Assembly: GCA_964637815.1 (NCBI GenBank)
Contig: CAZWYD010000004.1
Coordinates: forward strand, 1 to 35,096
Direction: 5' to 3'
Source of the DNA: an uncultured Planctomycetia bacterium
GTDB lineage: Bacteria > Omnitrophota > Gorgyraeia > Gorgyraeales > Gorgyraeaceae
Length of the DNA: 35,096 nt
Positions 1,072 to 16,226 of the stretch are shown one piece after another. How positions within the stretch are numbered: position 1 is the first letter of the stretch; each line of letters opens with the position of its first letter. The translations under genes and the position numbers were made by a program. The notes beneath the pieces were generated by a model that saw nothing but the letters and a program-made list of their open reading frames with translations, was not told the origin of the DNA and ran no database searches.

Positions 1072-1103
1072 ATAAGACACGAAAAGGGGGTCAAATTCTT
1101 TCA
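1072..1103 (-). promoter_or_regulatory. Bipartite motif TGAAAG-N17-GTGTCTTAT upstream of radC (candidate alternative-sigma promoter)
   Basis: The same two boxes and spacing recur at 13556-13587, 15324-15354 (N16) and 16159-16190; the spacer here is unrelated to the others. Confidence 0.65.
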
Positions 1104-2105
1104 ACTATTTCTCATTGCCAGCTGGCCACACGCAGCAAGGATGTCTTTGCCTTTTGATTCACGCACAGTTACATTCACGCTGTTTTTGATTAATCTCTTC
1201 TGGAATAGCTCAATATCTTTCCCAGTGGGCGCCTTGAATCTCTTCTCAGGCACAGGACTATAAGGAATCAGATTGACCTTGGCCTTTAACTTTTTAGCTA
1301 TGAGAGAAAGTTCATTTGCATCCTTTAGTGAATCATTCTTATCCTTGATCACTATATATTCAAGCGTGATCATTCTTCCTGAAAAATCATTGCATGCTGC
1401 TATTAACTCTTCTAAAGGATATCTCTTATTAATAGGCATCAGGCTATTTCGAAGTTTATTATTCGCGGCATGAAGAGAAATCGAAAGATTTACTTGAAGA
1501 TCTATTTCTTTAAATCTCCTAATCCCGGGTATTATCCCGCACGTTGAAACAGTTAATCTCCTGGCGCCGATACCCAGACCTAACGGAGAATTCATTATCT
1601 CGATCACTCTTTTCAGATTCTCAAAATTATCCAGCGGCTCGCCCATACCCATAAACACAAAATTTGTTATCTCTTCTCCTGCGAGCAGGATCTGGTCAAG
1701 GATCTCTGACACAGAAAGATCTCTCTTGAATCCTTTGAGGCCGCTTGCGCAAAACGCGCATCCAAATTTACACCCGACCTGCGTAGAAAGACAGATCGTC
1801 TTTCTTGAGCTGCTCGGGATAAACACACTCTCTATAAGACCGCCGTCATCTAATTCAAACAAAAACTTTTCAGTACCATCCTTGGATTTAAGTCGTTCCT
1901 TTAGCTTGACACCTCCCAGGCAAAAAACTCTACCAAGCTTATCTCTTAGAGATCTCGGCAGGTTACCCATCTCATCAAAACTGCGCGCGCGCCTCTTGTA
2001 TATCCATTCAAAAAGCTGATTCACCCTGTAAGATGCCTCTGAGAGCCTGCCCAGTTCTTCCTTTAATTCTTCAATTGTAAAATTCTTGATATCTTTCTTC
2101 TGCAT
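1101..2105 (-). CDS. rlmN: 23S rRNA/tRNA m2A methyltransferase RlmN (radical SAM)
   Basis: CLSTQVGCKFGCAFCASG, MGMGEPL, SLHA and AACGQL motifs. Start set at MQKKDIK (2105). Confidence 0.95.
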   Translation of the reverse strand: MQKKDIKNFTIEELKEELGRLSEASYRVNQLFEWIYKRRARSFDEMGNLPRSLRDKLGRVFCLGGVKLKERLKSKDGTEKFLFELDDGGLIESVFIPSSSRKTICLSTQVGCKFGCAFCASGLKGFKRDLSVSEILDQILLAGEEITNFVFMGMGEPLDNFENLKRVIEIMNSPLGLGIGARRLTVSTCGIIPGIRRFKEIDLQVNLSISLHAANNKLRNSLMPINKRYPLEELIAACNDFSGRMITLEYIVIKDKNDSLKDANELSLIAKKLKAKVNLIPYSPVPEKRFKAPTGKDIELFQKRLIKNSVNVTVRESKGKDILAACGQLAMRNS

Positions 2106-2118
2106 TCGGTGGTGGGGA

Positions 2119-2658
2119 TTAACGAGGTTTCTCTTCTTTTCCAAACCGTTCCAATAATCTTCTTATGTCGCTATTGGCTGATTTGGCGATCTGCGTGCAA
2201 ATAAATATCAACACTGAAAACTGCCAGCAGTCCTCAGGTCCGACAACTAGCCCGGAATGTACATCTTCCTTGCGCTGCAATATATCAGAGTGATACGAAA
2301 TTGCCTTTTCTATATGACCGTCATAGATATTAAGAGAAGCTGTTTTATTATTGTACTTCATGGAAGGGAAATTTACACCCCTAACAAGAAGAAAATTCAT
2401 GACCATCTCGTGACCGATCTCGAGTTCCTTCTCAAAATCAAAACCCTCGAACTGCGGCAGATTAGAAGGCAATATGATCGCAGGTTTTTCTACCATAACC
2501 TCGCCTTGCCTTACAATAGTATCACCCTTATTCACTAATGCCTCTGCCAAAAATGTATACGAGATATTCGTGTCAGAAAAAGTCTGTAGTTCCTGCGCGC
2601 GAGGACGTATTATCTTTGTCTTTTTTAACGCCTTTTCCCAGGCATCCTGAATATTCAT
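2119..2658 (-). CDS. Hypothetical protein
   Basis: 179-aa ORF starting MNIQDAWEKAL, with ATGA overlap to the upstream methyltransferase stop. Family not recognised. Confidence 0.8.
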   Translation of the reverse strand: MNIQDAWEKALKKTKIIRPRAQELQTFSDTNISYTFLAEALVNKGDTIVRQGEVMVEKPAIILPSNLPQFEGFDFEKELEIGHEMVMNFLLVRGVNFPSMKYNNKTASLNIYDGHIEKAISYHSDILQRKEDVHSGLVVGPEDCWQFSVLIFICTQIAKSANSDIRRLLERFGKEEKPR

Positions 2659-3377
2659 GATTTTCTCTGCTTGGCTATCTCGTGGCAAAAGATGGCGCAG
2701 GAGATTGCCACATTAAAGGAAAGACTGGCGCCTTCCATGGGTATACGCGCCTTTACATCCAGCTGCTTGTCAATGCCATGACGGATCCCTCCTCCTTCTG
2801 ATCCTAATATGAGTCCTAAAGGAAAAGGAATGGAAATACTGTTAATGTCTTGCGCGTCGTCGCCAACAATGCCTCCCATGATCCAGTACTCCTTTTTCTT
2901 TGCCTTAAGCATAGCGCTTGAGATATTTGAGACCATGCTAACTGCTATGAAATTCTCACCGCCTGAGGCAACATGTAAAACCGCCTCTGTGACCTCGCAC
3001 GCATTAAACTTAGGTATGACAATCGCAAATCCTCCGAAACACGCTGCTGTACGTATAATAACACCTAGATTCTGAGGATCATTAAGCCTATCTAGAAAAA
3101 TAAGCGTGGTCTTTTGATTCAATAAATCATCAAAGTCAGCATAATTAAACTTCTCCACCTTGGCAACCACACCCTGCAGGTCCTTAGTGTGTTTCATCTT
3201 AGACAGCTGCCTCGGACTTACGCGCGCCATCTCTATATGATTCTTGCGTATAAGTTTCTCAATATGCCCAAGTTCAATACCATCCTGCAGAAACACAGTC
3301 CTTATGCTCCTAGGATTAGCCTTCAACCTCTCATACACCGAATTCCTGCCATATAAAAGCATAGTGTCTCTGCTCAA
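2655..3377 (-). CDS. rlmB: TrmH/SpoU family RNA 2'-O-methyltransferase (RlmB-like)
   Basis: YGRNSV, QGVVA, LDRLNDPQNLGVIIRTA, LGSEGGG and IPMEG-SFNVA SPOUT motifs. GGAGG RBS before a TTG start. Confidence 0.85.
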   Translation of the reverse strand: MSRDTMLLYGRNSVYERLKANPRSIRTVFLQDGIELGHIEKLIRKNHIEMARVSPRQLSKMKHTKDLQGVVAKVEKFNYADFDDLLNQKTTLIFLDRLNDPQNLGVIIRTAACFGGFAIVIPKFNACEVTEAVLHVASGGENFIAVSMVSNISSAMLKAKKKEYWIMGGIVGDDAQDINSISIPFPLGLILGSEGGGIRHGIDKQLDVKARIPMEGASLSFNVAISCAIFCHEIAKQRKS

Positions 3378-3427
3378 TACATCCTCCGTACTATAAAAAA
3401 GAGGGCTATCTGCCCCCTTGAAGAGTT

Positions 3428-3502
3428 TGGGGTGGCTAACGGGATTTGAACCCGCTCTAAAAGAACCACAATCTTTCGTGCTGCCATTACACTATAGCCA
3501 CC
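3428..3502 (-). tRNA. tRNA-His(GTG)
   Basis: Cloverleaf with G-1, anticodon arm AAAGA-TTGTGGT-TCTTT, encoded CCA. Confidence 0.95.
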
Positions 3503-3510
3503 ACGTTATA

Positions 3511-4380
3511 TTAATTAAGGATATACTTTAAAAAATTGCCCTGAAGATTCTTTATCTTAATTAGATTATTTTTAAAATTAACCAGCAAAATAAAACTCCC
3601 TGTAGCTGGCATATTCTCTCCTTCGATTAAACACTTAGCTACTAAAGTCTTTTTTGAAATCTCAATATCGCTCTTAAGATCGACACTCAAATTCTTTATC
3701 AAGCGACTCGCCAGTTTTATATCATTCACCTGGAGCCTTGCGTTTATTGTATCATCTGACCCGGCAATGCCAGTCAGGCTCAGAGGCGCCAAGGAGTCTG
3801 AATCCTTATTTTTAAAAAATCCACTTGCGTCAAATTCGAATATGCGCTTCCCTGGACAGCAAAGACTTGGACTATTAACGCGACCTTTGATCTTTACCAG
3901 TTGAAAATCTTGTCCTTCTTTGTGCTCGTATATTAGGGTGCCGTTCTTTATGTATACCTTGGAAAAATGAATGTTTGAATTTGACCCTTTTCCCTTTAAA
4001 GAACCTAAGTCTTCTTCTTTTTTCAAAAAATCAAGGACTTGAAAACCTCTTTTCCCATTCTTCTTTATCTTAACAACAGGATCTATTACCTTGACCTTTG
4101 AAATCATAAAGTCTTTTTTCATCAAAAAAGACTTGGGATTCGGGTAAAGTCGAATATTCCTTATGTTAACTGAATCGTTTATTTTCACATCCCGCAACTC
4201 AAGACAAAGCGGCAATCCAAGTCCTACTGAAGCAACAGAAATATTCTCCTCAAAATTCTCTTCCAGGAATTCAGTAACAAACCACTCTAAGCGTTCAGTT
4301 GCATAGCGATAAGCAATCACCAGTGAAGCAATGGCTAGAAGAACAATAGCTACAACTATGATTTTTCTAAAATAATTCAT
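3511..4380 (-). CDS. Membrane-anchored AsmA/DUF748-like N-terminal domain protein
   Basis: N-terminal transmembrane helix followed by a beta-rich pattern (LELRDVKI, ISKVKVIDPVVKI, IKNGTLIY). Confidence 0.6.
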   Translation of the reverse strand: MNYFRKIIVVAIVLLAIASLVIAYRYATERLEWFVTEFLEENFEENISVASVGLGLPLCLELRDVKINDSVNIRNIRLYPNPKSFLMKKDFMISKVKVIDPVVKIKKNGKRGFQVLDFLKKEEDLGSLKGKGSNSNIHFSKVYIKNGTLIYEHKEGQDFQLVKIKGRVNSPSLCCPGKRIFEFDASGFFKNKDSDSLAPLSLTGIAGSDDTINARLQVNDIKLASRLIKNLSVDLKSDIEISKKTLVAKCLIEGENMPATGSFILLVNFKNNLIKIKNLQGNFLKYILN

Positions 4381-4389
4381 GACGAAGTA

Positions 4390-4469
4390 GGTCCTTCGGC
4401 AGCTAAAATGCTCGCTTTGCTCGCATTTCTTGACGCTGCCTCAGGATCAAATTTGCTTCGCAAATTTGG
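4390..4469. repeat. tRNA 3'-associated repeat, copy 2
   Basis: CATTTCTTGACGCTGCCTCAGGATCAAATTTGCTTCGCAAATTTGG matches both ends of the 96-262 element; also shares GGTCCTTCGG. Confidence 0.75.
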
Positions 4470-4741
4470 CGTCCCTGGGCTGATTCGAACAGCCGACCCT
4501 TTGCTTAGCATCCCAGCATCAGATTACTCTGACGACCTTTCGGCTTGCTGGCTGGACTTTATCTTGGGCATCTCAGCCCCGTCGTGTAAAGTCTCTACAC
4601 TCTCCGCCGCGGCGGATAGCTCGGTATAGCCCCAAATATTCAGGGTGTCCACCGAATTAGCGACGTCCACTTCATAAGTTCAATTCCTTATGAAGGCTCC
4701 TAATTGAAGGCAAATGCTCTATCCATCTGAGCTACAGGGAC
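4467..4741 (-). tRNA. tRNA-Arg(TCT), intron-containing (exons 4707-4741 and 4467-4508)
   Basis: Joined exons give GTCCCTG-TA-GCTC-AGATGGATA-GAGC-A-TTTGC-CTT^CTAA-GCAAA-GGGTC-GGCTG-TTCGAAT-CAGCC-CAGGGAC-GCCA. Confidence 0.92.
4509..4706 (-). ncRNA. Group I self-splicing intron (IC3-like), 198 nt, no ORF
   Basis: Follows an exon U and ends in G. P1 CUU^C/GGAG with U.G pair, P2 4670-4678/4687-4695, P3 CGTCG/CGACG, P4 TTCGGT/ACCGAG, R GTGTAGAGACTTTA, S AAGATAAAGTCCA, P8 GGGC/GCCC, P9 CCAGCA/TGCTGG. Confidence 0.92.
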
Positions 4742-4815
4742 AATTTCTTTCTAAATACAATAATGGTTTACCACCCGTAGCACGCTACGAAGTATCGCTC
4801 TATTTGAGCGAAGGG

Positions 4816-4893
4816 TGGTCGGGGCAGCTGGACTCGAACCAGCGACCCCCTGCTCCCAAAGCAGGTGCTCTAGCCAAACTGAGCCATGCCCCG
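4816..4893 (-). tRNA. tRNA-Pro(TGG)
   Basis: CGGGGCA...CCTGC-TTTGGGA-GCAGG...GCTGG-TTCGAGT-CCAGC-TGCCCCG-ACCA. Confidence 0.95.
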
Positions 4894-4933
4894 TTCCATT
4901 TTTTCAATAAAATTGAAAAAATGGAACGGGGCA
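4887..4933. repeat. Perfect 22-bp hairpin overlapping the 5' acceptor strand of tRNA-Pro
   Basis: TGCCCCGTTCCATTTTTTCAAT-AAA-ATTGAAAAAATGGAACGGGGCA. Confidence 0.85.
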
Positions 4934-4974
4934 CGCCCCTTATTACACGGGCATGCCTATATAAATGTCCTACA

Positions 4975-5003
4975 ATTCTATCAGCACTGTCTCAAAAAGT
5001 CAA
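4975..5003 (-). promoter_or_regulatory. sigma70-type promoter for the tRNA-Pro/tRNA-Arg cluster
   Basis: TTGACT-N17-TAGAAT with TG at the extended -10 position. Confidence 0.7.
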
Positions 5004-5011
5004 CCCTGAGC

Positions 5012-5602
5012 TTAAACGTATCTTTCTATGACCTTCTTTGCCTTTACCAGGGCTTTGCTTCTATGACTTATCTTGTTTTTCTTGCTTATGCCTATTTCCG
5101 CGAATGTCTTTTTGTGACCTTGCGGTATAAAAATAGGGTCATAGCCAAATCCAGCCTTGCCTCTTGGCTCAAATCCTATTTTGCCCCTACATCTACCTTC
5201 TACTGTACCAACCACCTTTCCTTTATCAGCAAGAGCTATCACGCACCTAAAACACGCCTTTCTCTTAGCTAAAGGTACGTCCCTAAGCAACCTCAAGACC
5301 TTTTGATTATTGCTGCTATACGTAGCGCCTTTTCCTGAGAAACGCGCAGAATATACACCTGGCCTGTTTCCAAGCGCCAGAACCTCTAATCCAGAATCAT
5401 CTGCTACTGCTAATTTTTTCAAATAACGTGAAACCTGTACTGCCTTTTTCTTTGCATTGGCTTCAAGGGTCTTGCCATCCTCTATCACCTCTGGAACACC
5501 CTTAAAGTTATTCAGGGATACGGCCTTTATGCGCAGACCTTTCAGAAGCGCCTTTATTTCCTTGAGCTTATCCTGATTCCTCGTAGCTACAACAATCTTC
5601 AT
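5012..5602 (-). CDS. rdgB: dITP/XTP pyrophosphatase
   Basis: ATRNQDKLKE, ADDSGL, PGVYSARF, GFGYDPIF and KNKISHR motifs; follows rph. Confidence 0.95.
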   Translation of the reverse strand: MKIVVATRNQDKLKEIKALLKGLRIKAVSLNNFKGVPEVIEDGKTLEANAKKKAVQVSRYLKKLAVADDSGLEVLALGNRPGVYSARFSGKGATYSSNNQKVLRLLRDVPLAKRKACFRCVIALADKGKVVGTVEGRCRGKIGFEPRGKAGFGYDPIFIPQGHKKTFAEIGISKKNKISHRSKALVKAKKVIERYV

Positions 5603-6294
5603 TATAGATTTATCTTTAAAATCTTTTTCTGAATGCCAATAAGTTCCTTAATACCTTTTTCTGCAAGCAAAATCATCTTGTCCAGCTCTTTTTTGGAAAA
5701 CGGGTTCTTTTCTGCTGTGCCCTGTACTTCAACGAGCTTGCCAGCACCAGTCATAACCACATTCATATCCACTTCTGCCTTTGAATCCTTTTCATAATCC
5801 AAGTCCAGACATAATTTACCGTCAACAACTCCCACGCTCACAGCAGCGATATAGTCATTCACAGGGATTTCATCTATAATATTTTCTTTTTTCAAAAAAA
5901 TCAGCGCCTCTATAAGCGCGATAAAGCTTCCTGTAATACTCGCAGTGCGCGTGCCGCCATCGCCCTGTATTACGTCACAATCAATCCATACAGTCCTCTC
6001 GCCCAGTTTTTTAAAATCTACTACAGAACGAAGGCTTCTTCCTATAAGCCTCTGTATCTCCTGCGTGCGGCCACTGAGCTTACCAGCTGATGCCTCTCTT
6101 CGTATCCTACTATTACACGAGCGCGGAAGCATGCCATACTCTGCTGTTACCCAGCCAGTACCCTTGCCTCTTAAAAAAGGCGGTACCTTATCTTCCACAG
6201 AAGCAGTACAGATAACCTTTGTATTGCCAACCTCTATAGTACATGAACCTTCTGCAAATCTCATGGTGTTCTTCTTTATCTTTATCTTCCTCAT
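5602..6294 (-). CDS. rph: Ribonuclease PH
   Basis: [45 protein letters not shown]. Start set at MRKIKI after GGAGG. Confidence 0.95.
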
Positions 6295-6321
6295 ACATCC
6301 TCCATTATCAAAAGTTATCCA

Positions 6322-6357
6322 CAATCGTAGGGGACGTTTAAACGTCCCCTACGATTG
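6322..6357. repeat. 36-bp perfect GTAG-type REP-like palindrome supplying the fumarase beta stop codon
   Basis: CAATCGTAGGGGACGTTTAAACGTCCCCTACGATTG. Confidence 0.85.
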
Positions 6358-6823
6358 CTGGGAAATCTTTTACTATTAGTCTGCGGATCGCCTCTGTTCC
6401 AAGATCCTTATATGCTATGACTTTACTAGAACATACTTTCTCAGATAAATACGCACCAGCACCGCCAATTGTAATAAAATATACTGCGCCAGATTTTTTT
6501 ATTACCTTGACTATCTCTTTTGATCTCTCGCCTTTTCCAATCATGGCAAGAAGACCGCGCCTCAGTAAAACAGGCGTAAACGGATCCATTCTCGCGCTTG
6601 TAGTCGGGCCGCAAGAACCAATGACCTGGCCTTTTCTTGCAGGCGTAGGCCCTGTATAGTAGATGGTCTCGCCTTTAATTGAAACAGGCAACCTCTTTGC
6701 CTCTGCCAATCTCTTATGCGCTGCGTCACGAGCAGTAAACATAGGTCCGCTTAACAAAACCCACTGCCCTGGCCTGAGTTTCTTTATAATATCTTTTGTT
6801 AAAGGCAGATTTATTCTTTTCAT
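6338..6823 (-). CDS. Fe-S hydro-lyase (class I fumarate hydratase/tartrate dehydratase) beta subunit
   Basis: [23 protein letters not shown] and LGTEAI motifs. Confidence 0.9.
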
Positions 6824-6831
6824 AATTTATA

Positions 6832-6883
6832 CCTGTCTGACCGCGTAGGTCGGATTTAAATCCGACCTACGCGGTCAGACAGG
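6832..6883. repeat. 52-bp perfect GTAG-type REP-like palindrome
   Basis: CCTGTCTGACCGCGTAGGTCGGATTTAAATCCGACCTACGCGGTCAGACAGG. Confidence 0.9.
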
Positions 6884-6888
6884 CCATC

Positions 6889-7716
6889 TTAAATTAGTTT
6901 CCTCGCATCCCTTGTAGCGTGACAGCTGATGTTTACTGCAACAGGTAGTCCTGCAATGTGTGTCGGGTATGCCAAGATGCTTACGCCCAGGGCTGTGGTT
7001 TTTCCAAAGATTCCCAGTTTATTGACTTTCTTTAGTATATCCTTTTCTAACTGTGCAATATGTGCTTTCTTATTATGCTTACCTATTGGTCGCAGTATTG
7101 CCTCTTTGGAAAGACTGACCGCCTTATCAAGTGTACCACCCATGCCAATACCTATATACATAGGAGGACATGCCTTTGAGCCCAGCTCTTTAATAATGCC
7201 AGCTACAAAATTCGCAATAGAAGAACCTGAATCAGTGGGCCTGAACATCCTGGTCCTTGAGGCATTCTCGCAACCAAACCCTTTTACTACAAGAGTTATG
7301 CCCAGCTTATTTCCCGGCACGATCTTTATGTGAATCACTGGCGGCAAGTTTGTATTTGTATTGGTACGCATCAATGGATCTCTTACAATAGATTTTCTGA
7401 AATAACCATCTTTATATGCATGACTCACGCCATCTGCCACAGCTTTATTGATATCGCCTTTTATCCTTGCATCCTGGCCTACTTCTAAGTACACCACCAC
7501 CATGCCTGTGTCCTGACATATTGGAAGATGTTTGCGTTTGGCAATCGCAGCATTATAAATAATGATATCCAGCATGCGCTTCGCCTTATCGCTAGTCTCT
7601 TTCCTCCTTGCGCGTCGCAATGCAAAAAGCACATCCTTGCGAAGCTGGAGGTTTGCCTTTATGCAAAGCTCCTTGACTACCTTAGCTATGAGATTACTAT
7701 TTACAGTGCGCATCAC
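6889..7716 (-). CDS. Fe-S hydro-lyase (class I fumarate hydratase) alpha subunit
   Basis: PICQDTG, KGFGCEN, ACPP and THIAGLPVAVNISCHATR motifs. Confidence 0.9.
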   Translation of the reverse strand: MMRTVNSNLIAKVVKELCIKANLQLRKDVLFALRRARRKETSDKAKRMLDIIIYNAAIAKRKHLPICQDTGMVVVYLEVGQDARIKGDINKAVADGVSHAYKDGYFRKSIVRDPLMRTNTNTNLPPVIHIKIVPGNKLGITLVVKGFGCENASRTRMFRPTDSGSSIANFVAGIIKELGSKACPPMYIGIGMGGTLDKAVSLSKEAILRPIGKHNKKAHIAQLEKDILKKVNKLGIFGKTTALGVSILAYPTHIAGLPVAVNISCHATRDARKLI

Positions 7717-8390
7717 TTTACTCCTAAAAATTTATGTATCTGTGGGATTATCCTGACATTAGGAAGCTTCTCCCTTGCACTTTCAAAGAAAATCGGCAAC
7801 AGATCTATTTTTTCCAATCCGCCATTACGGCTTGCTGGCTGGAGGATAAAAGGTATTTTCTTATTTACTTTTTCAACTATAGACGCAGCTGTATTGATAT
7901 CTGACAGAAGTGTCTGAGACGTAACTACTGCTTTCACAAATGTCTCCTTCTTGGCCGCTTCCTTTAAAAAAATAAAATGCTCATCCCAGTATTGTCTTAG
8001 GCCGGTTGAAGAAGGAAGCTTGAAATCCATACTTATTATATCCACATACTTCAATATCTTTAAAAGCCCGGCTGTCAATATACCGTTTGTCTCAAGGTAT
8101 ATCCTCCGGCCCTCTTTTTTTAAAGTTGGGAGCACTTCCCTTAAGAAATCTGCCTGTAACAGTGGCTCACCACCTGTAAGAGAGATGTTTCTCTTGCCAG
8201 ATATTACGATCTCCTTTATTAGATCAGAAGCCTCGTATTCTGAAAATTCGTCTTTCTTCTTTTTTTTCTCATCACAGAATCTGCAGGAAATATTACATCC
8301 GTAGAACCTGATAAAGAGTTGTCTTTCTCCAACATAAAGCCCTTCGCCCTGAATAGAAGTAAACATCTCTATGATCCTGGCTTTACTCAT
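7713..8390 (-). CDS. queE: 7-carboxy-7-deazaguanine synthase (radical SAM)
   Basis: SIQGEG, RFYGCNISCRFCD, TGGEPLLQ, ETNG, PQIHK; adjacent to queC. Confidence 0.9.
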   Translation of the reverse strand: MSKARIIEMFTSIQGEGLYVGERQLFIRFYGCNISCRFCDEKKKKKDEFSEYEASDLIKEIVISGKRNISLTGGEPLLQADFLREVLPTLKKEGRRIYLETNGILTAGLLKILKYVDIISMDFKLPSSTGLRQYWDEHFIFLKEAAKKETFVKAVVTSQTLLSDINTAASIVEKVNKKIPFILQPASRNGGLEKIDLLPIFFESAREKLPNVRIIPQIHKFLGVK

Positions 8391-8995
8391 GATTTAAACC
8401 CCTTTGCTCTTAGCCTGCAGGCATCGCACCTGAGGCACGGTTTTCTCTCGCCCTTGTAGCATGACCATGTAAGTTCAAAAGGTACGCCAAGTCTCTCCCC
8501 CATAGAGACTATCTCTTTCTTTGTCTTATAAAGAAGTGGCGTTTCTATTTTTATTCCCCTGGACCTTGTTGCCTTTTTTACCAGCTCATTGAATTTCTTA
8601 AAATAGAGCGGCCTACAGTCAGGGTAACCTGAAAAATCCCTTGCATTTGCGCCAATAAAAATAGCCTTTGCGCCTATTGCCTCTGCGAATGAGAGCGCAA
8701 AACTAATAAAGATTGTATTCCTGGCAGCAACATATGTAAGAGGTACGCCTCTCGACTTTCTATTTTCAGGAACGTGAATCTTTCTATCTAAAAGAGCACT
8801 ATTTTTCCACGGCAATTTTATTTTTAATACAAAATAATCTGACTTTGCTAATCTTTTAGCAAAACCTATCTCTTTCTTGTGCCTCTGTCCGTAATCAAAA
8901 ATGAGAGAGTAGACCTTGTATCCCTTTTTCCTTGCAATGTAAAGAGCAACAGCTGAATCCATTCCACCTGAGAGTAATATTACTGCCTTTTTCAT
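8387..8995 (-). CDS. queC: 7-cyano-7-deazaguanine synthase
   Basis: LSGGMDS, YGQRH, YPDCR, TWSCY and CxxCxxC motifs. Confidence 0.95.
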   Translation of the reverse strand: MKKAVILLSGGMDSAVALYIARKKGYKVYSLIFDYGQRHKKEIGFAKRLAKSDYFVLKIKLPWKNSALLDRKIHVPENRKSRGVPLTYVAARNTIFISFALSFAEAIGAKAIFIGANARDFSGYPDCRPLYFKKFNELVKKATRSRGIKIETPLLYKTKKEIVSMGERLGVPFELTWSCYKGERKPCLRCDACRLRAKGFKS

Positions 8996-9867
8996 GCGCG
9001 AGGATGCACCTTTTCATAGATAGACTTTAAACGCTCTGTTGTAACGTGCGTATATATCTGCGTAGAGGATAGATTCGCATGGCCTAAAAGCTCCTGCACA
9101 GACCTTAGATCCGCGCCCCTATCCAAAAGATGCGTTGCAAAAGAATGTCTCAAGGAATGCGGTGATATCTTTTCGCTGAGACTTGTCTTGCGTATGTATT
9201 TATCTATCACGCGTCTCACTGCTCTATCGCTCATGCGGCGTCCGCTCTTATTGACAAAGACTGCTTTTTTATCCTTTATACTAGAACTGCCAAGCTTTTC
9301 CAGATAATTTCGCATTGCCTTTAATGCCCTGTCGCCCACTGGAGCGAGCCGCTCTTTCTTGCCCTTGCCATATACTTTTAAAACGCCGCTTATAAAATCC
9401 ACCCTGTCTCTATTAAGACTTACGAGCTCGCTCACGCGTATTCCGCTGGAGTAAAGTGTCTCAAGTATTGCCCTGTCCCTCACCCCATACACATCAGACA
9501 TATCAGGTGATTCAATTAACTTTACCACCTGGTCTGCGTCTAAAAAAATCGGAAGCCTTTTTTCCAGCTTCGGCGTCTGCAAGCCTGCGGCAGGATTTGC
9601 CTTGATATAACCTTCCCTGCACAGGAATCTAAAAAAACTCCTCAAGCACGCCATCTTCCTGGCAACAGAACGTTTTGAAAAACTCTTCTCCTTCATGCGC
9701 GCCAAAAAAAGCCTCACATCCACATGCGAGATCTTTTCTAACGCCTTTTCCTTGATCGATCCGTCAAACTCCTTGAGGTCTATTTGATAATTCGTAATGG
9801 TATGCTGCGAGGCATTCTTCTCGATCTTTAAATAGGTCATGAACTTCTGGATATACCGCTCTAGCAT
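8992..9867 (-). CDS. xerC: Tyrosine recombinase XerC
   Basis: RDRAILETLYSSGIRVSEL, GKGKKER, HSLRHSFATHLL, LLGHANLSSTQIYTH; in the conserved dprA-topA-xerC context. Confidence 0.9.
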   Translation of the reverse strand: MLERYIQKFMTYLKIEKNASQHTITNYQIDLKEFDGSIKEKALEKISHVDVRLFLARMKEKSFSKRSVARKMACLRSFFRFLCREGYIKANPAAGLQTPKLEKRLPIFLDADQVVKLIESPDMSDVYGVRDRAILETLYSSGIRVSELVSLNRDRVDFISGVLKVYGKGKKERLAPVGDRALKAMRNYLEKLGSSSIKDKKAVFVNKSGRRMSDRAVRRVIDKYIRKTSLSEKISPHSLRHSFATHLLDRGADLRSVQELLGHANLSSTQIYTHVTTERLKSIYEKVHPRA

Positions 9868-9878
9868 ATTTTTTCATT

Positions 9879-11870
9879 CTACTGCGTAGGCAGCTTGCGC
9901 GTCATAAATCTGCACTTTGGATAGTTCGAGCAGCCATAAAAATGCCGGCCACGTTTAGAGCGCCTTTCAATAAGCCTGCCGCCGCAGCCTGATTCCGGGC
10001 AAGTCACGCTTGTAGGGATCGGTCTTGCGAATCTACAGTTTGGAAAATCAGAACAGCTTAGGAACCTGCCGAGCCTGCCCCATTTTATTACCATTGGCTT
10101 TCCGCATTTTTCACAGACTTCAGATGTAGGAACAGATTCACCCTTGACCTTTCTCATATTTACCTTCGCATACGCAAGATCTTTCTCAAAAGGCCCGTAA
10201 AAATCCTTCATGATCTCTAGTTTCTGCTTCTTGCCTTCCTCGACTTCATCCAGCTCTTCTTCCATCTTTGCTGTAAATTTATACTCCAGGACATCTGCAA
10301 AATTCTTCATTAAAAGATCGTTCACCACCATGCCTAATTCAGATGGATGAAAATATCCCTCTTTTCGTTTTATGTAATTCCTGGCAACTATTGTATAGAG
10401 AATAGGCGCGTAAGTGCTTGGTCTTCCTATACCATACTCTTCCAGCGCCTTTACCAGGGACGCGTCTGAAAATCTCGCCGGAGGCTTTGTAAAATGTTGA
10501 CTGGGGTTTAGTTTTATAAGAATAAGTTTTTCGCCTGACTCTAAAGCCGGCAAGATCTTCTCTCCCTTATTATCTTCTTTTTCCTCTGTCACTTCATAGA
10601 CAACGCTAAAACCGGAAAATATCTTCTGCGACCCCTGTGCCTTAAAGATGCAGCGGCCTGCTTTTATCTCCACGCTCATCACTGAAAATATCGCTGGAGA
10701 CATCTGGCTGGATACAAAACGATTCCATATAAGCGTGTAAAGTTTATATTGATCCTGACTCAAGTAACTCTTTACGCTCTCTGGCTCGCGTAATGGCAAT
10801 GTCGGCCTTATGGCCTCGTGCGCCTCTTGCGCGCCCTTCTTTGATTTGAATTTATTAGATACGGCAGGCGCATAGTCCTTACCGTATTTTTTAGTGATAT
10901 AATTTTTTGCAGCTTCTGTGGATTCCTTTGATAATCTTACAGCATCAGTTCGCATATATGTGATAAGACCTTCGTTGTCTTCCTCGCCTACATTAAGGCC
11001 TTCATAAAGCTGCTGCGCGATACTCATAGTCTTTGACGCGGAGAAACGTAATTTATGAAACGCGTCCTGCTGGAGTTTTGAGGTAGTAAAAGGCGCCTGA
11101 GCATATTTTTTCTTCTGCTTTTTCTGTACATCTGAGACGATAAAATCCGCTTTCTTTAACTCAGCGACTATTTTTTCTGCTTCGGGTTGTTTTGTAAGCT
11201 TTATCTTTTTTCCATCTACCTTGTCAAGCTTTGCAGTAAAACGCCTAATATCCTGATCTCCTGATCCCCTAATACCCTTTTCTAATTCCGCCTCAACATC
11301 CCAATACTCTTGTGGTATAAAGGCTCTTATCTCATTTTCCCTTTCAACGATCATCCTTACAGCCACTGACTGCACTCTTCCTGCTGAAAGCCCTCTCCCA
11401 ACTTTTCTCCAGAGAAGAGGGCTGATGCTGTATCCGACAAGCCTGTCTAACATCCTTCTTGCCTGCTGCGCCTCGACTTTATCAATGTCGATCTTCCCAG
11501 GATGTTTGAACGCTTCCTTGATAGCGTCCTTTGTGATCTCGTGAAACGCTATCCTGTATATATTTTTCTTTTTCCCAAAAAGGTTATAAAGATGCCAGCT
11601 TATGGCCTCGCCCTCTCTATCAGGATCAGTTGCGAGAAATATCTTTTCCATGCCTTTTGCTTCCTTTTTCAAGGCAGCCGCCTGCTTTTTCTTCCTGGGT
11701 ATCGTGACATACTGGGCCTTGAAATCATCCTCCACATCTATGCCCATCTTAGAGCCTGGCAGATCCACGATGTGGCCCATTGAAGAACGCACTACATAGT
11801 CCTTGCCCAGTATCTTATTTATGGTATTTGCTTTTGCAGGTGATTCAACTATCACAAGTGATTTAGGCAT
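9879..11870 (-). CDS. topA: DNA topoisomerase I
   Basis: IVESPAK, ATDPDREGE, SAGRVQS, ITYMRTD, AHEAIRPT and two C-terminal Zn ribbons. Confidence 0.97.
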   Translation of the reverse strand: MPKSLVIVESPAKANTINKILGKDYVVRSSMGHIVDLPGSKMGIDVEDDFKAQYVTIPRKKKQAAALKKEAKGMEKIFLATDPDREGEAISWHLYNLFGKKKNIYRIAFHEITKDAIKEAFKHPGKIDIDKVEAQQARRMLDRLVGYSISPLLWRKVGRGLSAGRVQSVAVRMIVERENEIRAFIPQEYWDVEAELEKGIRGSGDQDIRRFTAKLDKVDGKKIKLTKQPEAEKIVAELKKADFIVSDVQKKQKKKYAQAPFTTSKLQQDAFHKLRFSASKTMSIAQQLYEGLNVGEEDNEGLITYMRTDAVRLSKESTEAAKNYITKKYGKDYAPAVSNKFKSKKGAQEAHEAIRPTLPLREPESVKSYLSQDQYKLYTLIWNRFVSSQMSPAIFSVMSVEIKAGRCIFKAQGSQKIFSGFSVVYEVTEEKEDNKGEKILPALESGEKLILIKLNPSQHFTKPPARFSDASLVKALEEYGIGRPSTYAPILYTIVARNYIKRKEGYFHPSELGMVVNDLLMKNFADVLEYKFTAKMEEELDEVEEGKKQKLEIMKDFYGPFEKDLAYAKVNMRKVKGESVPTSEVCEKCGKPMVIKWGRLGRFLSCSDFPNCRFARPIPTSVTCPESGCGGRLIERRSKRGRHFYGCSNYPKCRFMTRKLPTQ
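11243..11278. repeat. Degenerate 8-nt tandem repeat inside topA
   Basis: GCCTAATA-TCCTGATC-TCCTGATC-CCCTAATA-CCCT, encoding GIRGSGDQDIR. Confidence 0.6.
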
Positions 11871-12971
11871 TTAGTTCTCCTTTACAAAATTCTTTCCTGG
11901 CAGCTGTCTTGCGAGCTTCTTCATCTCGAGATTCAACAAAATACTCGAGATCTCGCTCACTTTCAGCTTGAGCGCTCCAGACAGCTCATCTATGTGCTGA
12001 GGTTCGCTAGATAAAAGATTATACACCAAACTCTCCCATTTGTCCAATCTAGGAGATAAATATTCTTTATTATTATATATACCCATCCGACCTACGCGGT
12101 CGGATAGGTTCAATTCCTCGAGGATGTCTTCTACGGTTTCAGCGAGTTTTGCGCCTTGTTTGATCAGCTTATTTGTGCCTTTTGAGGTAGTTGAATCCAC
12201 TTTGCCTGGCACAGCAAAGACCTCTCTTCCTTCTTGCAGCGCGCAATCAGCTGTAATGAGCGCACCGCTACGCTGGGCTGCCTCTACTACAACCACTCCC
12301 TTGGAAAGACCATTTATGATCCTGTTCCTCTTTGGAAAATGCCCCTTGTCAGGTATTGTAAGCATTGGGAATTCTGAGATCACAGCGCCATTTTCTGAGA
12401 TCTCTTCTGCGAGGAGCCTGTGTTCTTCAGGATATATATTTATAAGGCCTGACCCTAAGATCGCGAGTGTACGACCCTTTGCCTTTAAAACACCTTTATG
12501 CGAACTTGAATCAATACCTCTTGCCAGGCCTGAAACTACAGTAATGCCTCTCGCGGCCAACTCGAACCCAAGCCTTTCAGCGGTTTTCATGCCATAAAAA
12601 GATGCTCTACGCGACCCAACTATTGCTACTGCCAGATCATCCTCAGGAATAATCTGGCCCATCACATACAATACCACTGGCGGGTCATAGATATTTTTAA
12701 GGTTTAGAGGATAATCCTTATCTAATATAGTTATGATCTTTACCTTATTCTTCTTGATTAGTTCCAGCTCATTAGATACATCTATCTCCCGTATCCCATG
12801 CCATATCTTAGGCGCGATCTTAGGACCTACACCTTCTGCTTGCTCAAGATCCCTTTGCTTAGCCTTAAAGATCTTCTGTAACGACCCAAAACGCTCCAAA
12901 AGCGCCTGCGTCCTAACACTCCCCAGGTCCTCGATCATGTTAAGGATAAGGAATCTTTCGATATTATTCAT
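11871..12971 (-). CDS. dprA: DNA-processing protein DprA
   Basis: AIVGSR, VSGLARGID, FPKRNRII, SGALITA, GREVFAVPG, LIKQGA and a C-terminal winged helix. Confidence 0.96.
   Translation of the reverse strand: MNNIERFLILNMIEDLGSVRTQALLERFGSLQKIFKAKQRDLEQAEGVGPKIAPKIWHGIREIDVSNELELIKKNKVKIITILDKDYPLNLKNIYDPPVVLYVMGQIIPEDDLAVAIVGSRRASFYGMKTAERLGFELAARGITVVSGLARGIDSSSHKGVLKAKGRTLAILGSGLINIYPEEHRLLAEEISENGAVISEFPMLTIPDKGHFPKRNRIINGLSKGVVVVEAAQRSGALITADCALQEGREVFAVPGKVDSTTSKGTNKLIKQGAKLAETVEDILEELNLSDRVGRMGIYNNKEYLSPRLDKWESLVYNLLSSEPQHIDELSGALKLKVSEISSILLNLEMKKLARQLPGKNFVKEN
12085..12108. repeat. Half copy of the 6832-6883 palindrome, in frame in the dprA linker
   Basis: ATCCGACCTACGCGGTCGGATAGG, 22/24 identical to 6860-6883. 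Confidence 0.8.
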
Positions 12972-13204
12972 ATTTCTGAATACCTTGACGCATACCTATC
13001 TAGTACCTCGCGTATCATCTTCTGGTATTTTAGATGATGATGCTTGGCCTGATACTTGAAGAATTCCACAGTTGATTTGTCTAAAGATATAGTGATTTTT
13101 ACGGTCCTTTTCGGAAACACTAATTCCTCAGGTGGCGGTAAAAAATCTTTTATCCTAGTCAACTTGCCAATCGGTGCATCTGGATCAATTTTTCTCTTCT
13201 TCAT
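12968..13204 (-). CDS. BrnA/CopG-like antitoxin
   Basis: DFLPPPEEL, KITISLD and KYQKMIREVLDRY ribbon-helix-helix pattern; downstream of a BrnT toxin; ATGA overlap with dprA. Confidence 0.85.
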   Translation of the reverse strand: MKKRKIDPDAPIGKLTRIKDFLPPPEELVFPKRTVKITISLDKSTVEFFKYQAKHHHLKYQKMIREVLDRYASRYSEI

Positions 13205-13469
13205 AAAGCCTCACTCCTTTCCTCCAATAACCAGCCCCAATAATTCTGATTTTATCATAACGATATGTAAATCTTACGGTCAATACCTTATCTCCTACTT
13301 TTCCTACACAGAAAAATCTCTCCTCCCCACTGCTATGTTTTGTATCCACATAAATCCTTCTACCAGGATCATTAAACACAAATGTAGCTGTAACAAAATC
13401 AACACCATGCTTAAAAATATTTCCCAATTCTTTCTTCTTATCCCAAATAAAACTAAGTTCTCTCTCCAT
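13185..13469 (-). CDS. BrnT family toxin
   Basis: FIWDKKKELGNIFKHGVDF, HSSGEERF, IRIIGA. Start moved to MERELS (13469) because the annotated TTG is the -35 box. Confidence 0.88.
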   Translation of the reverse strand: MERELSFIWDKKKELGNIFKHGVDFVTATFVFNDPGRRIYVDTKHSSGEERFFCVGKVGDKVLTVRFTYRYDKIRIIGAGYWRKGVRLYEEEKN

Positions 13470-13473
13470 AATA

Positions 13474-13528
13474 ACTATACCATAGATATGGCTATTTGTC
13501 AATATAATTATATGTATAATTATACATA
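13474..13528 (-). promoter_or_regulatory. sigma70 promoter of brnTA with upstream palindromic operator-like sites
   Basis: TTGACA(13502-13497)-N17-TATAGT just before the ATG (leaderless-like); two TATAATTATA palindromes at about 13503-13524. Confidence 0.7.
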
Positions 13529-13550: not shown

Positions 13551-13614
13551 TATATATAAGACACATCAAGTGCCCTATTTTCTTTCAAATATTTTTAGGA
13601 AGGTTTACTACAGA
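13551..13614 (-). repeat. Direct repeat containing TGAAAG-N17-GTGTCTTAT (copy nearest dprA)
   Basis: Nearly identical to 16154-16226, including the distal GTTTACTACAGA. Confidence 0.85.
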
Positions 13615-13651: not shown

Positions 13652-14317
13652 TTATACTAATCTTCGGGACAAGCGGTGTAATTCTAGATTGGCCAGGGCC
13701 ATGACTTTCTTTTTGACTGCCCTAGAAAAATATTCTTTTTCAGTCTTGGTCAGTTTTTCACCTTTGAGCTTCTTTAAAAATAATTCCTTTTGTTTTGGCG
13801 AGAAAACCTGAGACAACGAATATTCAAGTCCTAATTCTTCTTTCAGGGAGAGCAAATCCTTGAGTTCTGAGCGGACATGATTAAAATAATTATTAAATGT
13901 GAGTTTTAATCTCTGGCTGGACATAACCTGCCCTGCGAGCTTAAAATCCTTATCTTTTTTGAGCTTTTTCAGAAAATTGTTAAATTCTTTTTTGCTCTTA
14001 CTGTTCAAATTTTCATAAAATTTACTACTCCAGGAAAACTTTATACTCAATGTGTTGTAAAGAGCAAGAGACATTACTAATAGTGAATCTAAGCGGAGTT
14101 TATCAGGGCTTTTTTTAAGATATCCTTTGGCGACATTGTAATTAAACAATCCTTTTTCTGCGCTATTAGCCAATACAACAGGAAATCCATTCCAGAGACG
14201 AAGGTCTTTACTTTGGACTACGTCAGCTAATACGGCATTAACATCTAGTTCTTCCTCTGTCTCAAGTAGAGAAAAACCAAGTTTGCTTAACTTTTCTAAA
14301 AGACTCTTATTAACCAT
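13652..14317 (-). CDS. Hypothetical basic protein, partner of the nucleotidyltransferase
   Basis: 221-aa ORF overlapping the upstream gene by 8 nt; Lys-rich helical C-terminus (FSPKQKEL...TKTEKEYFSR). Confidence 0.75.
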   Translation of the reverse strand: MVNKSLLEKLSKLGFSLLETEEELDVNAVLADVVQSKDLRLWNGFPVVLANSAEKGLFNYNVAKGYLKKSPDKLRLDSLLVMSLALYNTLSIKFSWSSKFYENLNSKSKKEFNNFLKKLKKDKDFKLAGQVMSSQRLKLTFNNYFNHVRSELKDLLSLKEELGLEYSLSQVFSPKQKELFLKKLKGEKLTKTEKEYFSRAVKKKVMALANLELHRLSRRLV

Positions 14318-14897
14318 TATTCAACCCTTCTTCCTTGACGATTCTCAAAAAATGTCCCAGGTTTTTATTTACCCTGCCCTCTGATACATCAAAAGATGCT
14401 GTTTCTTTAAAGCGTTTCTGCAATATCTTTAGATCTATGTCTTTTTTCTTCGCCTTGATCAAAGAAAGACAATCTTCTATGTCTATCGCGTCCGACCTAA
14501 ATAACTTAGTTATGATAAGGTCGTAGTAATTAAGCACGCCTAGATAAATATGGCTAAACTCCTTTATTAAAATATGGCTATCCTTATCTAATGGCGATTC
14601 TAATAATTCTGTTGTATGAACAAATTTGCCTCTAAACAAATCAAAAACAAAAGCATCTCCCCTTGCCCATCCTGTACCACTCGCAGATTTATATCCAAGC
14701 TGCTGTAGAGTGCTTATAAGATAGTCATATTCATTTAAATTCGGTACAATCAAATCTATATCTTTAGTAGAAGGTTTTATTCCTAAAAGTGTTAGTGCTG
14801 TGCCACCACAGGCAATAAGATACACCTTTCTCTTAAGAAAGCTATCCCATCCGCTAATCCTATCTAATAAGCCCTGTTTATCTATTCTATATATCAT
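14310..14897 (-). CDS. Nucleotidyltransferase-fold protein (DUF6036/AbiEii-like)
   Basis: CGGTAL...STKDIDL NTase signature and C-terminal LIITKLFR...DIED. Confidence 0.75.
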   Translation of the reverse strand: MIYRIDKQGLLDRISGWDSFLKRKVYLIACGGTALTLLGIKPSTKDIDLIVPNLNEYDYLISTLQQLGYKSASGTGWARGDAFVFDLFRGKFVHTTELLESPLDKDSHILIKEFSHIYLGVLNYYDLIITKLFRSDAIDIEDCLSLIKAKKKDIDLKILQKRFKETASFDVSEGRVNKNLGHFLRIVKEEGLNNG

Positions 14898-14994: not shown

Positions 14995-15219
14995 TCATGC
15001 CTTTCTCTTCCTGAGATAGTCATCGAAATCTACTGCAGACTTTTCATCAAGGCGCAGCTTCTTAAGGTCGATCATGTCTTCTATCATCTCTTCACGCTGT
15101 AGCTGCTCCCGCAGGGCCTTTTCTACGAAAAAACCTTGTTTAAGTCCGTGAGAATGACAAAAATCTTTGATCATGTGAATCAGAGACTTCTCGATTTTTA
15201 TTGAAAATACACCTTTCAT
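14995..15219 (-). CDS. Ribbon-helix-helix antitoxin-like protein (orphan)
   Basis: 74 aa, beta-alpha-alpha N-terminus and acidic tail; GGAGG RBS; TTTACA-N17-TATGCT promoter at 15268-15240. Confidence 0.65.
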   Translation of the reverse strand: MKGVFSIKIEKSLIHMIKDFCHSHGLKQGFFVEKALREQLQREEMIEDMIDLKKLRLDEKSAVDFDDYLRKRKA

Positions 15220-15320: not shown

Positions 15321-15373
15321 TATATAAGACACATTTCAAGGCGATTTTCTTTCAAATATTTTGGATTTTTTTA
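15321..15373 (-). repeat. Diverged copy of the dprA-upstream repeat (TGAAAG-N16-GTGTCTTAT)
   Basis: TATATAAGACACATTTCAAGGCGATTTTCTTTCAAATATTTT. Confidence 0.8.
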
Positions 15374-15467: not shown

Positions 15468-15525
15468 CCGAGATTCGACCTCGGCTTTCTCTAAAAGCTT
15501 GGTGCCAGGTTTAAACCTGGCCTAC
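15468..15525. repeat. Cluster of short REP-like palindromes
   Basis: CCGAG-ATTCGAC-CTCGG at 15468-15484, and GCCAGGTTTAAACCTGGC followed by CTAC at 15504-15525. Confidence 0.6.
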
Positions 15526-15530
15526 TACTA

Positions 15531-15589
15531 CTAACACTCCCCAAGTCCTCGATCATGTTAAGGATAAGGAATCTTCCGATGTCATTCAT
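15531..15589 (-). pseudogene. dprA: Duplicated 5' fragment of dprA
   Basis: 55/59 nt identical to 12913-12971; encodes MNDIGRFLILNMIEDLGSV versus MNNIERFLILNMIEDLGSV, then runs into a palindrome and stops at 15491. Confidence 0.9.
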
Positions 15590-15848
15590 AATGAGTCCAC
15601 ATGCGGATGATCTTCACTATCTTGTATCGCTTTATCACCTGATAAATAATGCGATGGTGAATGTTTATCCTGCGCGAATAAGCGCCTTTTAAATCGCCTA
15701 CTAATTTTTCAAAAGGAGGATGGGCCTGGAATGGATTATGTTTTAGGATCTCGAGTATGGCCTCGGCCTTTGGCCGCAGGCCTGCCTTAGAAAGTTTCTT
15801 GGCGTCTTTCTGGGCCTGTTTTATATAAACAAGTTTCCACTCTACCAT
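15582..15848 (-). CDS. yoeB: Txe/YoeB family toxin
   Basis: PPFEKLVGDLKGAYSRRINIHHRIIY and C-terminal WTHYE. Confidence 0.92.
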   Translation of the reverse strand: MVEWKLVYIKQAQKDAKKLSKAGLRPKAEAILEILKHNPFQAHPPFEKLVGDLKGAYSRRINIHHRIIYQVIKRYKIVKIIRMWTHYE

Positions 15849-16084
15849 TTTAATTTTTTACTGCACTTCTTAATAGGAGTCTTAAGTCCCTTGCGAACAG
15901 ACTCCCTCATGCCCGGTATCGAAAGTAGATACAGGGTCTCCTGGATCGCGCGCCAATCCTCTTCTGATATAAGGATGGCATTATGCCTTTTGCCTGATAT
16001 CTGAATAGGCTCATGCGACTCAGCTGATCTATCCAGCAGCTTATACAAATTAGCCCTGGCTTCACTAGCAGTAAGACTCGTCAT
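15842..16084 (-). CDS. yefM: Phd/YefM family antitoxin
   Basis: ASEARANLYKLLD, ISEEDWRAIQETLYLLSIPGM. Start set at MTSLT after a G-rich RBS. Confidence 0.92.
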   Translation of the reverse strand: MTSLTASEARANLYKLLDRSAESHEPIQISGKRHNAILISEEDWRAIQETLYLLSIPGMRESVRKGLKTPIKKCSKKLKW

Positions 16085-16108
16085 ATCAATCACCCCCCCT
16101 CTACTTAA

Positions 16109-16137
16109 AGCGTACCACATTACGTACGTAATGTCAA
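16109..16137 (-). promoter_or_regulatory. yefM-yoeB promoter with palindromic operator
   Basis: TTGACA-N17-TACGCT with an 18-bp palindrome ACATTACGTACGTAATGT (16117-16134). Confidence 0.8.
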
Positions 16138-16153
16138 GAGGGGCTTTTCTCCT

Positions 16154-16226
16154 TATATATAAGACACATCAAGTGCCCCATTTTCTTTCAAATATTTTAG
16201 ATTTTTTTAGGTGAGTTTACTACAGA
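16154..16226 (-). repeat. Direct repeat containing TGAAAG-N17-GTGTCTTAT (distal copy)
   Basis: Near-identical to 13551-13614. Confidence 0.85.

Follow-up and report, generated by a model that had tools for sequence, protein, structure and literature searches.

A recurring two-box element before comM, recA and radC in an Omnitrophota bacterium, a probable promoter class of one ECF-type sigma factor

The regulons of the competence sigma factors ComX and SigH include the uptake machinery genes comEA, comEC, comG and comF. LexA/SOS regulons hold recA and, depending on the lineage, may also hold comM, toxin-antitoxin modules and transposases. Promoters of extracytoplasmic function (ECF) sigma factors canonically carry an AAC-like -35 box and a CGT-like -10 core (CGTC), and one such factor, RpoE, has the zinc anti-sigma factor ChrR as its partner. 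In Corynebacterium glutamicum, the report on the SigH-RshA pair, to the extent of its passages used here, shows experimentally that a SigH-dependent promoter drives the anti-sigma gene only (PMC3489674). SigG of Mycobacterium tuberculosis is damage-induced, yet repair genes lie outside its control according to the abstract of that study. Here we describe a two-box element that recurs before radC and in the dprA region of a 35,096-nt stretch of DNA (the window) from an uncultured Omnitrophota bacterium, and that we consider likely, on the basis of its sequence and genomic context, to be the promoter of one ECF-type sigma factor of this organism. Omnitrophota are widespread, uncultivated and very small bacteria in which almost no gene regulation is known. 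The window corresponds to contig C4 of a draft genome (G000) of 1.33 Mb in 141 contigs, with 41% G+C and an estimated completeness of 73.8%. Its RecA, too conserved a protein to single out close relatives, matched mostly distant phyla, with an Omnitrophica metagenome-assembled genome as the best match (76%).

An earlier note on this DNA had reported the pattern TGAAAG-N16/17-GTGTCTTAT at four places on the coding strand of radC and dprA. Positions and strand are confirmed: exact matches lie at 1072-1103, 13556-13587, 15324-15354 and 16159-16190, in each case on the minus strand, from which both genes are read, and 100 dinucleotide-preserving shuffles yielded no match. Genome-wide, the same pattern has seven matches and its reversed control none, and seven of the ten GTGTCTTAT words in the genome are paired with a TGAAAG box. 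The full element, AAAAAWWTTGAAAGAAWWT-N8/9-NATGTGTCTnATATA, is longer than the one first reported. Aligned genomic copies consist of an A/T-rich tract, TTGAAAGAAWWT, 8-9 variable bases and (A/G)ATGTGTCT(T/A/G)ATATA, so that the element extends beyond the two original boxes by the A/T-rich tract and TTGAAAGAAWWT on the upstream side and by ATGTGTCTnATATA on the downstream side.

Sixteen sharp copies are present in the draft genome at one mismatch or fewer. Looser matching produces 186 matches versus 139 for the reversed control and thus amounts to noise. On a two-block position weight matrix (PWM), the 16 sites score 29.5-55.6, values that are partly circular because the matrix was built from the same sites; the best-scoring distinct locus after them reaches 26.4 and contains just box 1. 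A relaxed pattern, TTGAAAGAA-N12-16-TGTGTC, gives 14 matches in this genome versus none for its reversed control. Fifteen of the 16 sites reside 10-124 nt upstream of a co-directional open reading frame (ORF). A contig end truncates the sixteenth, which, by homology with a genome of the same genus (G001, 97% complete), precedes an anti-sigma gene.

In all 16 sites the distance from TTGAAA to GTGTCT is 17-18 bp, which is the spacing of -35 and -10 boxes, and the element is oriented toward the downstream gene. A TATA-like run lies ~25 bp from TTGAAA, by our reading too far away to be a sigma-70 -10 box. A ribosome-binding site and an ATG follow many copies within 10-30 nt, leaving no space for a separate sigma-70 promoter. 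The last observation, together with the two-block spacing, the strict orientation and a lack of dyad or direct-repeat symmetry (hence of a symmetric LexA box), speaks against the element being an operator through which a repressor or activator, either a LexA substitute or a competence regulator like ComK or Sxy-CRP, acts on ordinary sigma-70 promoters. Some other regulator of recA is expected, because the LexA DNA-binding domain (PF01726) was found in none of five genomes, four of them at least 90% complete, and Peptidase_S24 is absent from G000, G001 and G008, with weak matches only, in two genomes. Moreover, sigma-70-like promoters are present just downstream of the motif at recA and at toxin-antitoxin modules, and spoVG, which encodes a nucleic-acid-binding regulator, is itself a target. 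We nevertheless judge the operator explanation unlikely, also in view of the variants in sister families described below, which fit the ECF form AAG/AAT...CGTCT at the junction of a sigma gene and an anti-sigma gene.

Another explanation places the element in the 5' leader of the mRNA, where the C-rich spacer would pair with the downstream ribosome-binding site and control translation, with the boxes as tail and loop. CCTCC-like spacers are indeed frequent, and by our reading ACCCCCTTT / AAAGGGGGT of the radC copy can form a fold around box 2. Over 77 unique sites, though, the duplex of a spacer with its own downstream region (-9.33 kcal/mol) is hardly distinguished from cross pairings (-8.59 kcal/mol; Wilcoxon p = 0.11), and the own partner is the better one in 51%. 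Rfam matches, at the gathering threshold in the window and 11 loci, are confined to three tRNAs. Some copies directly follow a terminator-like hairpin and T-run, as read at C20:16241, and the comM copy sits in a divergent intergenic region. A hairpin that sequesters the ribosome-binding site was dropped as a candidate, given neither site-specific pairing nor covariation over the 77 sites and no Rfam match. An RNA leader element is therefore the least probable of the explanations considered.

A candidate for the sigma factor, of 183 amino acids, lies outside the window at C20:17022-17570. It matches the TIGR02937 sigma70-ECF model with 58.3 bits (cut-off 42.9) and Sigma70_r2 with 32 bits. The next gene encodes an anti-sigma factor (zf-HC2, 35.7 bits) with an HxxxCxxC motif. 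The order on this contig is motif, Y1 transposase, sigma gene, a second motif that overlaps the end of the sigma gene, and the anti-sigma gene, which stands at the contig end. The arrangement in G001 is sigma, motif, anti-sigma, motif, spoVG, and in a further relative, G008, it is motif, sigma, anti-sigma, motif, spoVG. The anti-sigma protein of G001 also has zf-HC2 and HxxxCxxC and, by reading of its sequence, two predicted membrane segments. Three sigma-70-family genes were found in G001. Because the other two lie in open frames of 536 and 299 amino acids, of which we take the 536-amino-acid frame to be RpoD, the candidate is the only ECF-sized sigma factor in that genome.

Among the sigma loci of the family, 14 of 15 have at least one site. 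The site lies directly before the anti-sigma gene in nine of the 15, before spoVG in nine, and 66-75 nt before the sigma gene in two. Sigma homologues with 30-42% identity exist in many families of the class. In sister families, the sigma/anti-sigma junction carries TGAAAG, TGTAAT or TGCAAG with (A)CGTCT, and junctions in other families have the variants TTGAAAGAAAAC-N12-CGTCTATTATAG or ATGTAATAAAAT-N11-ACGTCTAC. A strict regular expression for such ECF variants matches eight of 24 junction loci versus none of 24 in the reversed control, a count that includes one locus (L152) that looks like a false alignment by eye; further ECF variants are visible by eye at junctions beyond those eight.

Of the 18 other genomes of the family, 16 contain the relaxed pattern; none of 12 genomes outside the family does, and the reversed control has no match in any of the 31. 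Among 12 family genomes with comM, 11 show a site with a score of 18 or more no further than 130 nt upstream of its start; the exception, G012, has one weak site and one locus that lacks upstream sequence. The comM gene of the single sister-family genome sampled has the CGTCT variant, and nine other comM loci from outside the family have none. At recA, 12 of 19 loci have a site (PWM score at least 12), of which 11 are located 134-293 nt before the Pfam start and one 961 nt before it. Five of the other seven show degenerate versions by eye, and the loci of G017 and G018 show none. The site is found at seven of 17 usable radC loci; the second radC paralogue of the present genome has no site. For dprA the count is six of 17 family loci, directly before the gene in G008 and G017 and via an inserted toxin-antitoxin module in G000, G001, G002 and G015. 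The conserved core consists of comM, recA and the sigma locus. Two of the genes that the earlier note had proposed for checking, comM and recA, are thus preceded by the motif, and relatives retain it at orthologous positions. The view that the element is promoter-like rather than a scar of duplication is supported.

Gene linkage outside the family provides evidence that is independent of the motif. Among 41 non-family genomes with a sigma homologue (E ≤1e-13), 20, from nine families, have comM 1.1-2.7 kb downstream of that homologue and co-directional with it. The order in one of them (G028) is sigma, zf-HC2 anti-sigma, SpoVG, YraN (UPF0102), ComM. The same order is seen in G030, where the ORF at the anti-sigma position has no Pfam match, and G022 has sigma, an ORF without Pfam match at that position, YraN and ComM. 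From this arrangement, comM may have been the original cargo of the sigma operon; in the present family comM has been relocated and has retained the promoter.

The genes behind the 16 sites fall into several groups. Those for recombination encode ComM/YifB (TIGR00368, 663 bits), RecA, RadC and, after BrnT/BrnA, DprA. Toxin-antitoxin genes and small ORFs comprise Phd/YoeB, a second BrnA-like gene, a 74-amino-acid ORF and a 119-amino-acid ORF without family. Four sites precede Y1 (IS200-like) transposase genes, and others precede genes for an ORF6N protein, a PD-(D/E)XK protein and a secreted beta-propeller protein. The one regulator is the zf-HC2 anti-sigma factor, whose gene directly follows the ECF sigma gene. 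Exact-pattern sites of G001 and G008, chosen regardless of gene content, extend the list to MazE/AbrB-like antitoxins, AbiEii, RhuM-Fic, Bro-N and ORF6N. A Pfam tally over 75 proteins includes loci that were chosen via recA, comM, radC and dprA and, being biased, was not used as an enrichment test. Contig C11 of G008 has seven exact-pattern copies on one strand within 21 kb (17.8-38.7 kb), six of which score at least 24 on rescoring, each before a different small accessory gene. The cluster has the appearance of an island of cassettes under one sigma factor.

The accessory genes also raise the possibility that the element is the end or attachment site of a mobile cassette, integron-like or a target of the Y1 transposase, so that copies mark insertion junctions and have no regulatory role. 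Consistent with this, Y1 transposase genes lie behind four of 16 sites, G008 has its seven exact-pattern sites in 21 kb, and three copies of the window are crowded into 2.7 kb, next to toxin-antitoxin modules that have been swapped and a duplicate of the dprA 5' end. Recurrence of the element upstream of orthologous single-copy core genes (comM in 11 of 12 genomes, recA, and 14 of 15 sigma loci) is difficult to reconcile with an insertion mark, as are conservation limited to the two boxes and an orientation that is always that of the downstream gene. Cassettes that landed behind, or carry, an active promoter account better for the same arrangement. We therefore regard a non-regulatory cassette end as very unlikely.

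The four copies in the window can be considered individually. The copy before radC spans 1067..1111 on the minus strand, with a -35-like TTGAAAG at 1098-1104 and a -10-like GTGTCT at 1075-1080; its PWM score of 29.5 is the lowest of the 16 sites. From its end, 23 nt separate the element from the radC ATG at 1048, and AAAGGGGG lies in this gap, as expected from the ribosome-binding site that had been described there. The spacer of this copy is unrelated to those of the other three, also in line with the previous description. The gene itself (377..1048, minus strand) encodes the RadC JAB domain (PF04002, 139.7 bits) and UPF0758_N. The TGA of the TGAAAG box is the stop codon of the upstream rlmN-like radical SAM gene (1101..2144, minus strand; Pfam Radical_SAM and RlmN_N), which thus ends within the -35 box. 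This copy would act directly on radC.

Whereas placement upstream of radC was correct, the three copies assigned to dprA each directly precede something else. The first (13551..13595, minus strand) has the top PWM score of the genome, 55.6, and stands directly before brnT (13185-13502) and brnA (12968-13204), which together occupy 12968..13502 on the minus strand and match BrnT_toxin (75.5 bits) and BrnA_antitoxin (27.6 bits). The dprA gene (11871..12971, minus strand; DNA_processg_A, 262.4 bits) begins ~580 nt downstream of this copy, overlaps the brnA stop by 4 nt, and is followed by topA, an xerC/D-like gene, queC and queE. The second copy (15324..15363, minus strand; PWM 53.0) directly precedes a minus-strand group composed of a 74-amino-acid ORF (14995-15219) and a pair formed by a DUF6036 nucleotidyltransferase gene (14310-14897) and a 221-amino-acid ORF (13652-14317). 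A third copy (16154..16198, minus strand; PWM 54.4) directly precedes a phd/yefM antitoxin gene (15842-16120; PhdYeFM_antitox, 66 bits) and a yoeB/parE-type toxin gene (15582-15848; YoeB_toxin, 35 bits), located at 15582..16120 on the minus strand. Behind phd-yoeB is a 60-nt duplicate of the dprA 5' end (15531..15590, minus strand; 93% identical to 12913-12972), and a terminator-like hairpin (15468..15484, minus strand) lies between this fragment and the second copy. Among the three, it is most likely the copy at 13556 that reaches dprA, by read-through of brnTA.

A sigma-70 promoter scan called none of these three copies. Each toxin-antitoxin unit of the dprA region has its own sigma-70-like promoter; that of brnTA (TTGACA-17-TATAGT with TG; 13474..13502, minus strand) lies downstream of the ECF motif. 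In G001, phd-yoeB is found directly before an intact dprA, while here a 2.6-kb block with two extra promoter copies is inserted and the dprA 5' end is duplicated. The region thus appears to exemplify cassette turnover behind a promoter. The 221-amino-acid ORF and a 368-amino-acid ORF (16229-17335, minus strand) have no Pfam or NCBIfam family match.

We propose that a membrane-anchored zinc-finger (HxxxCxxC) anti-sigma factor keeps the sigma factor inactive until some signal sets it free. The free factor would then bring RNA polymerase to TTGAAAG (-35) and GTGTCT (-10, 17-18 bp downstream), with help from the A/T-rich upstream tract. Transcription is predicted to start in the ATATA just after GTGTCT and to yield a short leader with a ribosome-binding site. 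For positions 1-10000 of the window, none of the listed sequencing runs contained this DNA as RNA. Core targets would be comM, recA, the anti-sigma gene and spoVG; radC, dprA and a type IV pilin operon would be variable ones. It appears that many toxin-antitoxin modules, transposases of the repetitive extragenic palindromic (REP) type with a Y1 domain, and phage-like accessory genes acquired this promoter by capture. Negative feedback would result from the sigma-dependent promoter that precedes the anti-sigma gene. Because the anti-sigma protein has almost no extracytoplasmic part, it is a reasonable guess that the signal is cytoplasmic, either redox or proteolytic.

The genes concerned also bear on what kind of regulon this might be. 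Genes for DNA processing of the competence type (dprA, recA, radC and comM) all carry sites. No site of their own was found at five comEC and four comEA loci, where the only match is a divergent transposase promoter in G000, and the type IV pilin-pilin-pilM-pilN operon has a site at two of 15 loci, or two of the eight with at least 1190 nt of upstream sequence. The label of a competence regulon, given in the earlier note, is thus not borne out, and its proposal of a dedicated sigma factor for DNA uptake and processing survives in part: a candidate ECF sigma/anti-sigma pair with the motif in its own locus exists, while control of uptake genes is not supported. Because comEA and comEC lack the site, the data favor a regulon for recombination and DNA processing over one for DNA uptake. 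The set resembles a late competence regulon minus the uptake genes, and also an SOS-like set (recA, toxin-antitoxin modules, transposases and phage-like genes) under positive control by a sigma factor. Provided that assignment to the ECF sigma factor is right, the main role of the regulon may tentatively be placed in a competence-like state, where it would serve recombination or the processing of incoming DNA. A recombination response induced by stress or damage is a slightly more doubtful possibility, and the remaining probability falls to other roles. Any effect on transformation or repair is a prediction.

Several observations weigh against assignment of the motif to this sigma factor, or against a dedicated recombination regulon. 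An orthologue of the sigma factor was not found in five of 21 family genomes, namely G004 (81% complete), G013 (92%), G017 (90%), G018 (96%) and G032 (91%). Good sites nevertheless precede recA in two of these, G013 and G004, and radC in G013; either the sigma gene falls into a gap of the assembly or the motif has another reader. G018 lacks both the sigma factor and the motif, and this comparison of co-occurrence rests on incomplete metagenome-assembled genomes. The -10 box GTGTCT departs from the canonical CGTC, and the family -35 box is GAAAG. Accessory genes, among them those for toxin-antitoxin modules and Y1 transposases, lie behind about half of the 16 sites. The toxin-antitoxin modules also possess sigma-70-like promoters of their own, alongside which the motif may contribute to their expression. 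At recA, an additional conserved sigma-70-like promoter, TTTACT-N17-TGTATAAT, lies downstream of the motif and is kept at all recA loci, including those of G017 and G018. The two genes that first drew attention, radC and dprA, are variable members, and the comEA and comEC results given above count on the same side.

Some repeats and other features accompany the motif or lie elsewhere in the window. The recA upstream regions of different genera (L012-L031) share a conserved block, GGAGGTGATGYTATAATTTGCTTTACTTTAAGG…TTGTATAAT, between the ECF motif and the gene; it contains TTTACT-N17-TGTATAAT and, upstream of it, a stretch that is Shine-Dalgarno-like and TATAAT-like. A palindromic repeat of 39-41 nt (TAACTTTACATTTAA...TTAAATGTAAAGTTA) occurs in the window at 340-380 and 17932-17972 with 97% identity, and also just after the motif at one further locus (L004, on C16 of G000) and in the recA leaders of G000, G001 and G012. 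This repeat of intergenic regions and leaders may be a REP-like or terminator-like element family. Members of a second, REP-like palindrome family (…CCGACCTACGCGGTCGG…) are found at 6832-6883, as a perfect palindrome of 26+26 nt, at 12085-12109 within the dprA frame, where the copy falls in the interdomain linker and leaves the frame unbroken, and at L011, where the copy follows the motif and stands directly before a Y1 transposase gene that resembles those of REP-associated tyrosine transposases. A third, short palindrome (GCCCAGGTTTAAACCTGGGC-like) lies between promoter and ribosome-binding site in several targets; it is seen at ~15500-15530 of the window, behind the comM promoter in both G000 and G001, and behind that of radC in G001. 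The window also contains an 84-nt inverted repeat that is 77% complementary (96-179 / 4386-4469) and a 27-mer (4465-4491) that resembles a tRNA 3' end and was not called as a tRNA by ARAGORN or Rfam. Matches to ComEC (Competence domain) have one or two in-frame stops in five genomes (C35 of G000, C2 of G001, C26 of G003, C79 of G014 and C57 of G008), which may be either an artefact of the alignment or a genuine feature.

Literature listings and abstracts returned nothing on an ECF sigma factor that drives recA, comM and dprA, nor on sigma regulons of Omnitrophota. Should the proposed assignment be correct, this would be an ECF regulon of unusual content, and it would account for the clustering of toxin-antitoxin and transposase genes behind a single recurring sequence. 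Sigma factors are few (three sigma-70-family genes in G001) and no LexA was found; therefore, a single ECF sigma factor on comM, recA, radC and dprA would be the main handle on control of recombination, repair or transformation. A broader proposal, which we put forward tentatively, is that throughout a whole class of Omnitrophota one switch, consisting of an ECF sigma factor and a zinc-associated anti-sigma (ZAS) factor rather than LexA or a known competence regulator, acts as the master regulator of homologous recombination and of the processing of transforming DNA. It might have originated as a sigma-antisigma-spoVG-yraN-comM operon whose promoter was repeatedly captured by toxin-antitoxin modules and REP-type transposases, which would tie their expression to a recombination-active state. 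The assignment to this sigma factor is testable without cultivation.

Comparison with described systems shows partial likeness to each. The RpoE regulon of Rhodobacter sphaeroides is a singlet-oxygen response and is unrelated to the targets here. RpoE-ChrR of that species (PDB 2q1z) is the closest solved sequence relative of the candidate sigma factor (E = 2.1e-7), and RpoE too is an ECF sigma factor, with low similarity to the present one. LexA/SOS regulons are similar in gene content; in contrast to them, no LexA was found here, the motif is non-palindromic, and a sigma factor would exert positive control. As with ComX/SigX of streptococci and SigH of Staphylococcus aureus and Lactobacillus sakei, in the portion of the literature covered, a dedicated alternative sigma factor would turn on genes of the dprA, recA and radC type. 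Unlike those regulons, comEA and comEC lack a site here; the present sigma factor matches only the general ECF superfamily model, and an anti-sigma factor would control it.

The SigH-RshA system of C. glutamicum provides the remaining comparison, as far as the consulted parts of the report describe it. Its regulon is mainly a response to thiol-oxidative stress and heat, in an organism where LexA is present (PMC3489674), whereas the conserved targets here are comM, recA, spoVG, radC and dprA and no LexA was found. By our reading, the anti-sigma factor here is distinguished by two predicted membrane segments. The boxes here are TTGAAAG and GTGTCT. What the two systems share is an ECF sigma gene followed by the gene of a zinc-finger (ZAS) anti-sigma factor, a regulon that touches DNA repair (uvrA and uvrD3 in C. 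glutamicum), and a sigma-dependent promoter between the two genes that serves the anti-sigma gene only, and so, in our candidate as in SigH-RshA, would establish negative feedback (PMC3489674).

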